This document shows, one piece after another, positions 13,229 through 15,316 of a DNA stretch of 40,277 bases. Within the stretch, counting starts at the first letter, position 1, and every line of letters begins with the position of its first letter. The stretch is from positions 1-40,277 of the IMG/VR virus record IMGVR_UViG_3300042972_000028, one strand, 5' to 3'. The notes beneath the pieces were generated by a model that saw nothing but the letters and a program-made list of their open reading frames with translations, was not told the DNA's origin and ran no database searches. This DNA is from a virus. Its lineage: Duplodnaviria; Caudoviricetes. The position numbers and the translations under genes were made by a program.

Positions 13229-13364
13229 GAAACAGTACGAGCACGCGATCCAACTCATCCGCGAAGGAGCCGACGATGAACGGATTCGCCGCGAATTCGG
13301 CTACAACCAGAACGTCATCAACGGATTGAGGCAATCACTCGCAGACAAGGGGCCAACATGGTAA
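13218..13364 (+). CDS. Small hypothetical protein (HTH-like)
   Basis: Overlap-coupled 48 aa ORF. Confidence 0.6.
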   Translation: MSREKQYEHAIQLIREGADDERIRREFGYNQNVINGLRQSLADKGPTW

Positions 13365-14110
13365 GCGTTATCGTCGGCTGCCAAGTATGCGGCGCGGAAA
13401 CCAGCGGAGGCAGGGTGTGCGGCAATTGCACGAGCGAGCTGGCGCACACTTTGCGTCACCTGGCCGCGCGCCTGCCCGACCTGCGTATTGTCGCCGCGAA
13501 GAAAGCTACCGTCATGGCGCGTGAACAAGGCCACGGGGCACGCACAGTCGCCCCGATCCCCTTGAACGCGGGAGCATGGCAGTTGCAGCAAAGCATCGAA
13601 AAATACGCCGTCACCCTCGCCGGCGTGCTCACGCTCCCATACCGGAAACTCCCCGCCGAAAGCCTGTTGAAAGGCGCAGCATCACGCACGCCAGCATTGA
13701 TGCAACGCAGGGACGCGGCCAGCATCCACACCCTCGCCACCATCGCCAGCAGACGCCTCGACCGACAATTGGAGCCACCACAAAGCCGCATCCTCATCGG
13801 ACAATGCCCCTACTGTGGAGACGACGTATGGAGCAGCGAAGACGACCTAGCCGTAGGCTGGCAACCATGCAACTGCGGACAAACCATCAACATCCCATCA
13901 GTCCAAGAACAACGAATATTCAAGTTAGCCATATCCGACGCACAAGGCACTGCAGCAGCACTCAGCAAACTGTTGAAAAACTGCGGAATCACAGTACGCA
14001 GGCAGACCATCAGCGAATGGAAACGACGCGGCATCATCAACAGCGTCAGCACTCAAGACGGTAAACCGGTATTCCTGCTCTGGGACGTGTGGGCGGCGGT
14101 CACCCGCTAA
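13358..14110 (+). CDS. Zn-finger + C-terminal HTH protein, probable late transcription regulator
   Basis: CQVC/CGNC, CPYC/CNC, TAAALSKLL...RQTISEWKRRG HTH; last early gene before late promoter. Confidence 0.7.
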   Translation: MVSVIVGCQVCGAETSGGRVCGNCTSELAHTLRHLAARLPDLRIVAAKKATVMAREQGHGARTVAPIPLNAGAWQLQQSIEKYAVTLAGVLTLPYRKLPAESLLKGAASRTPALMQRRDAASIHTLATIASRRLDRQLEPPQSRILIGQCPYCGDDVWSSEDDLAVGWQPCNCGQTINIPSVQEQRIFKLAISDAQGTAAALSKLLKNCGITVRRQTISEWKRRGIINSVSTQDGKPVFLLWDVWAAVTR

Positions 14111-14151
14111 CTGTGGACGTTATTTGCATTCACAAACTGTGGACGTAAAGT
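14109..14151 (+). promoter_or_regulatory. Putative late promoter with 12 bp direct repeats
   Basis: AACTGTGGACGT at 14109-14120 and 14135-14146 flanking TTGCAT-N16-TAAAGT. Confidence 0.65.
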
Positions 14152-14233
14152 TATCTAGATTGATTATTTTCATATGTGGGGCTCGGGAACACCGGGCCCT
14201 CCGCGTTACGAGTGCTATCAAAGGTCGTGAAAC

Positions 14234-14509
14234 ATGATTGATGTCCAGATTCGCGTGCATGACATAGCAGTAGATGGCATCCCAGAAACCATCCACATCG
14301 ATGACAACTCCTTGCACTTTTACCATGAAGGCGAATGGATACAAGGCACCCCAACCAACGAGCTAGATCACGTAGGGAACCCAATTTGGGAACATCACGT
14401 GACCTTCACAGCAACAGAAACCTATTCAGGAATCCGCTACTACACGTATCTACCTGCGCACTCAATCGATTCGCCAGTTAGGGATAATAGCGAACCTCAC
14501 TACCGCTAA
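14234..14509 (+). CDS. Hypothetical protein
   Basis: AAAGG SD, first ORF after the putative promoter. Confidence 0.6.
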   Translation: MIDVQIRVHDIAVDGIPETIHIDDNSLHFYHEGEWIQGTPTNELDHVGNPIWEHHVTFTATETYSGIRYYTYLPAHSIDSPVRDNSEPHYR

Positions 14510-14515
14510 ACACAT

Positions 14516-14777
14516 TCTTGCCGTCAAATAGCGGGCGGCAACACGTAGGGATGCGGTGGTTCGCCATTGCAACCCATGGGCTCACGGATCTAGGTTCATG
14601 AGCATCCTCTGATCGAGACGGCAACTCCATGAACTTAAGAGAGCGGGTTCGACTCCCGCCAGAGGAACGATGGATGCAAGGTCAATGGATCCGAGTGCAT
14701 CCCGTATAGGTTGATCGCTATGCGACTGCCCACCATTGGTGGGCACCACCATAATCCTCACCAGAGGTCAGGCAAGC
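14516..14777 (+). ncRNA. Putative structured ncRNA containing a tRNA-like domain (14605-14670)
   Basis: Perfect 7 bp acceptor TCCTCTG/CAGAGGA, T-arm GCGGG-TTCGACT-CCCGC, D-like arm, several flanking hairpins including a UUCG loop. Confidence 0.6.
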
Positions 14778-14983
14778 TCAAATGGATTACTCCGAAAGCA
14801 GCGTCCAAGCCTCTGCCTACATATTCTTGTGGTTTCTGCGTGATAGGGACACGCACTGGGTTCCCGAATGGGAGCAGGCGAAAGCCGAGAATTCCCAAGT
14901 GCCCAAGTGGAAACCACACATACTTGCCTGGTGGCATTTACACCTTTCACCACCGGGCACCACACTTCACACGGAGGCACACG

Positions 14984-15211: not shown

Positions 15212-15316
15212 ACACTTGCCCTGCCTCGCCACAACATTCAGAGCCCAACAAGGCAGACGAGAGCAGGGCATTCACATTTCCGAACGAACGCATAACCGAA
15301 ACGGGTGGTGGAAGAC

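Follow-up and report, generated by a model that had tools for sequence, protein, structure and literature searches.

A tRNA-derived acceptor/T-arm shell without an anticodon arm is one cassette of a mosaic RNA array in the predicted late leader of a Bifidobacterium-type prophage

The window analysed here is the whole 40,277-nucleotide stretch of IMG/VR record IMGVR_UViG_3300042972_000028. It is the genome of a temperate siphophage, with an integrase at the left end followed by repressor, RecT-like and replication genes and then by HNH, terminase, head, tail and lysis genes. The host genome has a tRNA-Gly gene directly before the window start. Both named relatives of the phrog_908 gene upstream of the feature sit in Bifidobacterium species (B. 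mongoliense and B. psychraerophilum), so the host is likely a Bifidobacterium and the prophage of Bifidobacterium type. The RNA region lies between this gene and the HNH/terminase genes (Table 1). The late-leader location given in the original prediction is supported; the phrog_908 gene and a putative late promoter lie on the 5' side of the region and the HNH/terminase genes on its 3' side.

Judged from its position, the phrog_908 product is a putative late-gene regulator; the protein, whose family is unnamed, is a candidate late activator or antiterminator. In 20 of 53 related regions the regulator gene is followed by two direct repeats placed around a TTGCAT/TTGACA-like hexamer, and both copies of the repeat change together. 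Sigma-70 promoter and terminator scans of the region gave no match. We infer that 14110-14151 is a regulator-bound late promoter. Its repeat pair flanks a -35-like hexamer and is likely the operator for the upstream phrog_908 protein. The space between the promoter hairpin and the RNA array is a cargo slot, which holds a 91-aa ORF in the window and other ORFs or none in relatives.

Table 1. Features of the late-leader region, in window coordinates
Feature	Coordinates	Strand	Remarks
phrog_908 gene	13358..14110	+	Cys-rich; C-terminal DNA-binding-like region; anchor for locus comparison
Putative late promoter	14110..14151	+	Direct repeats 14110-14119 and 14136-14145 around TTGCAT, then a -10-like hexamer
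First hairpin after promoter	14179..14199	+	Conserved, terminator-like; present in related loci; function inferred
91-aa cargo ORF	14234..14509	+	No family match
Module A hairpin	14518..14541	+	Commonest cassette; 19 viral stretches
Leader hairpin 1	14544..14578	+	UUCG-capped; retained in L233, where one G-U pair has become A-U
Leader hairpin 2	14580..14603	+	In the MFE; covariation with L233; z -2.87 and -4.02; holds strand 14591-14600
tRNA-like shell	14605..14668	+	Acceptor 14605-14611/14660-14666; T-arm 14643-14659; A73, C74
Variable interior	14612..14642	+	Weak D-like hairpin and 15-nt unpaired linker; anticodon arm absent; natural variant T14630C
Module D hairpin	14672..14702	+	GGATGCA/TGCATCC; conserved loop; also in L009, L137, L138, L159; compensatory changes in L138
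Module E	14708..14758	+	Contains TGCCCACC/GGTGGGCA hairpin
Module F	14769..14818	+	Multi-stem; 9 variants; consensus fold with single-sided changes only
Module G	14825..14918	+	Also in L004, L009, L138
Module H hairpin	14924..14960	+	Common to more distant Bifidobacteriaceae prophages
Module I	15216..15270	+	Last cassette 5' of HNH/terminase genes

The region had been described as one structured RNA; it is instead an array of independently moving cassettes. In related phages the same slot is filled by module A, hairpins 1 and 2, the shell, modules D to I, modules absent from the window and cargo ORFs, in varying order, and ARAGORN-called tRNA-Trp, tRNA-Tyr and tRNA-Gln genes are cassettes in the same arrays. 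Contigs place the unit 14541-14668, with a single base change, in front of three or more different downstream neighbours, and the same slot also holds an alternative allele. The feature is one cassette of a mosaic late-leader array that is reshuffled among related phages. The flanking hairpins of the original prediction were found where it had placed them. The pairing it suggested between GGATCCGAG and CTCACGGATC did not hold up in either direction: the downstream module is found in L009, L137, L138 and L159, where this leader is missing, and L233, X10, X12 and X13 have the leader but not that module. Modules D and E show four double changes among five sequences, every one from L138. Across 20 array loci, Rfam at gathering level matched only tRNA.

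Several other properties of the array were recorded. Modules H and I, the last before the late genes, are the most widely common cassettes (also in L208, L209, L210, L217 and L229), and TTGCC...GGCA ends are common to modules A, H and I. A multi-stem module absent from the window recurs in L004, L007, L009, L156 and L164, with a fixed core, visibly covarying outer and inner stems and no Rfam match. In the contigs of sequencing runs X8 and X9, module A (14518-14532) is joined straight to the T-arm (14647-14665) at a short shared motif, a junction that is possibly a microhomology deletion and would show a route of array rearrangement. Module D was considered as an HDV/theta-type ribozyme and rejected: judged by eye against the consensus it is too short between the P1 strands, and it has no Rfam match.

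The predicted acceptor stem (14605-14611/14660-14666), ACGA tail and T-arm (14643-14659) are all present. The predicted D-like arm (14615-14627) is present as a 3-bp hairpin with a GG loop, with a predicted pair probability of 0.25-0.35. In isolation the window shell folds with a z of -1.16. The copy has A(-1), its 3' end reads ACGA instead of RCCA, and CCA is not encoded. ARAGORN called neither a tRNA nor a tmRNA in the window, and the copy carries C3-G70 in place of the G3-U70 Ala acceptor, which sets a tmRNA aside. As anticipated, no Rfam family covers it, the best being tRNA (RF00005) at 19.2 bits with a cut-off of 29. The 7-bp acceptor stem and canonical T-arm of a tRNA are there; folding of the window interior gives no local stem for an anticodon stem-loop (5 bp + 7 nt). 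What does exist here is an acceptor/T-arm shell of tRNA origin that lacks an anticodon arm.

The interior had also been credited with an anticodon loop of the YTNNNRN type (TAA). When the 15-nt linker was shuffled 20000 times, 35% of the shuffles contained this pattern, and the partner strand of the supposed loop lies upstream, meaning that it is not a hairpin loop; the 10-bp helix proposed with that strand would consume four of its seven bases. Since the window interior has CTCCATG in common with CCA-loop alleles, TAA is not the best-supported homologue. Assigning any anticodon to the window copy was rejected, as loops reading CCA, CTT and TAA are all possible on paper and each lacks a stem.

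The central claim of the original prediction was that the 5' leader completes the anticodon stem. The complementarity itself is present as described, with 14591-14600 matching 14628-14637 over 10 bp with one G-U. Such a length is uncommon for a leader of 30-90 nt (0.4-1% of 3000 leader shuffles, p 0.004-0.01; 0.15-0.4% of phage segments), and the duplex energy is ordinary (p 0.18-0.74). The leader strand TAGGTTCATG belongs to a local hairpin, 14580-14603, a competitor overlooked earlier (z -2.87). The sequence 14541-14670 folds as three units, namely hairpin 1, hairpin 2 and the acceptor/T shell, at -46.1 kcal/mol, compared with -44.0 kcal/mol when the leader helix is forced; unforced, the leader helix has a probability of 0.25. 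A 301-nt MFE does form the helix, though it replaces the acceptor stem. These energies come from folding models that cannot score pseudoknots, a blindness that favours a pseudoknotted tRNA mimic or co-transcriptional switch, as do the unusual helix length and the 301-nt fold.

Comparison with relatives points the other way. Only one diverged homologue carrying this leader was found, L233; the leader is absent from all 52 other regulator-downstream regions. L233 has the same three-unit fold (z -3.73). Between the window and L233, four of the 10 pairs of hairpin 2 are unchanged, two show double changes, two are changed on a single side and still paired, and the remaining two are unpaired in one of the two sequences. 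Based on two sequences, this covariation is not significant (133/500 shuffles), and its direction is clear. Covariation was also the proposed check of the leader:anticodon helix, which is absent from L233: four of its 10 pairs are left, none with a double change, and the longest leader:interior match anywhere is 5 bp.

The helix is broken in the commoner natural allele as well. Eight sequencing runs were compared, seven of which cover position 14630. The base is C in five (X10, X12, X13, X20 and X21), which represent five study codes and perhaps few lineages, and T in X8 and X9. X20 and X21 have a depth below 5, and X21, flagged 'probably DNA', was excluded as expression evidence; no RNA sample was listed as carrying the region. 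X20 aligns from 14605 onward only, and its record coordinates suggest a different upstream neighbour. The contigs of X10, X12 and X13 span 14541-14668 and differ solely at 14630, so that the central A-U pair of the leader helix is broken without compensation. With T14630C the predicted leader-helix probability drops from 0.25 to 0.00; seven contiguous pairs survive in the C allele, a point in favour of the helix, and the remaining match is at chance level (7-8 bp, p 0.055-0.18). The allele of L010, L137 and L159 also offers the pseudoknot some support: its leader and interior match over 7 bp in the same CATG register, and three positions differ on both sides. However, both strands of the L010 type lie within their own hairpins (predicted cross-pairing 0.00, background p 0.18), and L136 combines an L010-type interior with an unrelated leader. 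The 10-bp match between leader and interior is most likely a chance alternative fold and not a structural part, and an anticodon stem completed by the leader, already largely refuted, is now most improbable. A circularly permuted tRNA was also rejected: a likeness between hairpin 2 and the L007 D-arm is eroded in L233, and the order of the arms does not fit.

The shell was found in 11 distinct alleles, in which 125 of 132 acceptor/T cells are paired, with one compensatory C-G to U-A change. The seven unpaired cells are 1:72 in L134, 6:67 in four alleles, and T-stem positions in L136 and L233. Covariation across the 11 alleles is not significant (81/500 shuffles). A73-C74 occurs in 11/11 alleles, six of the 10 non-window ones having first been found by patterns that include part of that end, and U(-1) occurs in 8/11. 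The interior takes eight forms of 27-48 nt, ranging from a full cloverleaf to none. It is a full cloverleaf with an unusual anticodon loop in L004, L007/L009 (GTT) and L011, a compact pair of hairpins with a CCA loop in the L010 type and L134, enlarged in L233, and poorly structured in the window and L005. ARAGORN calls full cloverleaf alleles in L004, L007, L009, L011 and L134, and the sister alleles so called score 33-51 bits with the Rfam tRNA model. L011 also has a mini-cassette in which an acceptor-like stem closes directly on a CCA-loop hairpin, with D and T arms absent, and L134 has a similar relic; both seem derived from a Trp tRNA allele and are possible anticodon-loop decoys.

Searches further afield returned little. 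In INPHARED, blastn found nothing beyond 22-nt matches between the T-arm and tRNA-Leu in 179 mycobacteriophage records. An estimated ~950 stretches fitted a loose leader-plus-interior pattern; 0 of 120 loci matched the region by blastn, and these were set aside. A DNA search of 120 relative genomes gave two short matches. A search with a 17-mer of the interior found one viral match, unrelated, and a hairpin-1 pattern found the contig of L233 and one unrelated coding match. The shell pattern occurred in 1 of 235 other family genomes. Two metagenome-scan loci with a similar shell in a context that may not be this array (L165/L166) were left out of the shell alignment, as were L235, L238, L239 and L241, viral tRNA matches with other T-arms and unrelated context. 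L165:940-1030, on an unrelated-looking metagenome contig, combines a similar acceptor/T shell, including A73, with a non-canonical anticodon loop of 8 nt; shells of this type may thus extend beyond this phage group.

These alleles bear on whether the element is kept or decaying. One reading takes it as a neutral relic: a phage gene of tRNA-Asn type, still complete in L007/L009, would be breaking down through deletion and recombination while it rides in a cargo slot that tolerates it. The existence of full cloverleaf alleles, the poorly structured interiors of the window and L005, and the seven unpaired shell cells, which fit relaxed selection, all favour it; a truncated Trp cassette (L155) and the apparent module A/T-arm fusion in X8 and X9 would represent ongoing decay. 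However, interiors are replaced and not eroded, as the L010 type, L134 and L233 have new well-paired hairpins of different sequence at the D and anticodon positions. All 11 alleles retain the 7 nt of the 5' acceptor strand, which lies between two variable regions, and this strand is present in 8/8 loci found by the 3' half alone. We consider a relic rather unlikely. The earlier view of a selected ncRNA instead of simple decay is supported, the shell being kept while its interior is swapped and neighbouring modules carry compensatory changes. Recent common origin plus recombination, instead of selection, could also account for the conservation of the shell.

Our preferred interpretation, held tentatively and already among the options of the original prediction as an RNase P processing element, is that the shell (14605-14668) may act as a punctuation mark for host RNase P, with a predicted cut at 14605. 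The part that is kept is the part that tRNA end-processing enzymes read. Transcription would start on induction from the promoter near 14110-14151, RNase P would cut before T14605, and 3' trimming and CCA repair would follow after A14667. The outcome would be release of a non-decoding tRNA-like RNA, with the upstream hairpin cassettes freed as separate small RNAs; the cassettes would be reshuffled by recombination at shared modules, and the phage encodes a RecT-like protein. The host has a gene of the CCA-adding/poly(A) polymerase family. U(-1) and a 3' RCCA are favoured by bacterial RNase P, whose substrates also include several non-tRNA and phage-induced RNAs (PMC4919922). Because it has A(-1) and ACGA, the window copy is a weaker predicted substrate. 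In M. smegmatis, RNase P cuts the tRNA-like domain of the YrlA RNA, which then gets CCA; the acceptor-like stem of this domain, 7 bp long, is named as a major determinant of cleavage (PMC4201824).

The same conserved half could be read by defences. The element would then be a decoy for tRNA-targeting systems that recognise the acceptor/T-arm/CCA end (Cas12a3-like), its interior varying so as to dodge anticodon nucleases. The conserved part is indeed the part gripped by Cas12a3 (PMC12851939), and full alleles have non-canonical anticodon loops, which nuclease pressure would be expected to produce (PMC10264068), but a copy without an anticodon arm cannot decoy an anticodon nuclease, and we regard this reading as improbable. 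A broader version, in which a fixed shell with a hypervariable D/anticodon slot (eight forms, including none) is a selected scaffold, processed from an array of about ten modules and serving as a diversifying decoy against tRNA-targeting immunity, is unlikely though conceivable. The position of the shell, between a putative late promoter with a terminator-like hairpin and the terminase genes, would suit a cis-acting antitermination component of the late operon. However, many close relatives have no shell (e.g., L138, L147, L151, L156, L158 and L164) and the broadly conserved modules are H and I, which makes this role very doubtful; H and I are better antitermination or protein-binding candidates than the tRNA shell.

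The element can be set beside known RNAs. With phage and prophage tRNA genes (RF00005) the Asn-type window shell shares the 7-bp acceptor stem and canonical T-arm; the window copy differs in that the anticodon arm and encoded CCA are absent and the interior is interchangeable. By analogy, it would work most like a pseudo-tRNA element inside a longer RNA. The B. cereus tRNA-Other pseudo-tRNA is likewise tRNA-like, non-translational and found on a mobile island inside longer RNAs, although it is a single element flanking a genomic island and, in the part of PMC3399842 consulted, is not described as a swappable-interior cassette in a phage late leader. The tRNA-like domain of YrlA Y RNAs (RF02553) mimics acceptor, D and T arms (PMC4201824), whereas in the window shell the acceptor ends are the outer ends of the RNA. 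The YrlA covariance model gave no match in the window (sister L240 reached 20.7 of 69 bits), and Ro60/TROVE, the YrlA partner, had 0 matches in the 99.9%-complete genome. GOLLD and ROOL are likewise structured RNAs of unknown function near prophage tRNA islands, but they are single large folds, whereas the window array consists of 25-100 nt cassettes that shuffle independently (bioRxiv 10.1101/2024.12.08.627333). Identity with them was rejected on the separate movement of the modules and on there being no Rfam match to them in the window or array loci.

Phage tRNA-like RNAs and structured RNAs upstream of terminase have been reported as a class (Fremin et al., PMC10690425). In six supplement files of that paper the shell and module I motifs were unmatched, and overlap is possible. 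No description of the array or shell was found in the portions of the literature covered, including PMC6109161 and PMC10690425. What the locus provides is a natural allele series in which the acceptor/T half is kept and the decoding half is freely swapped or dropped. The series separates decoding from non-decoding roles of phage tRNAs in a way that is testable with short RNAs, and the array offers several modules absent from Rfam, some of them with compensatory changes.
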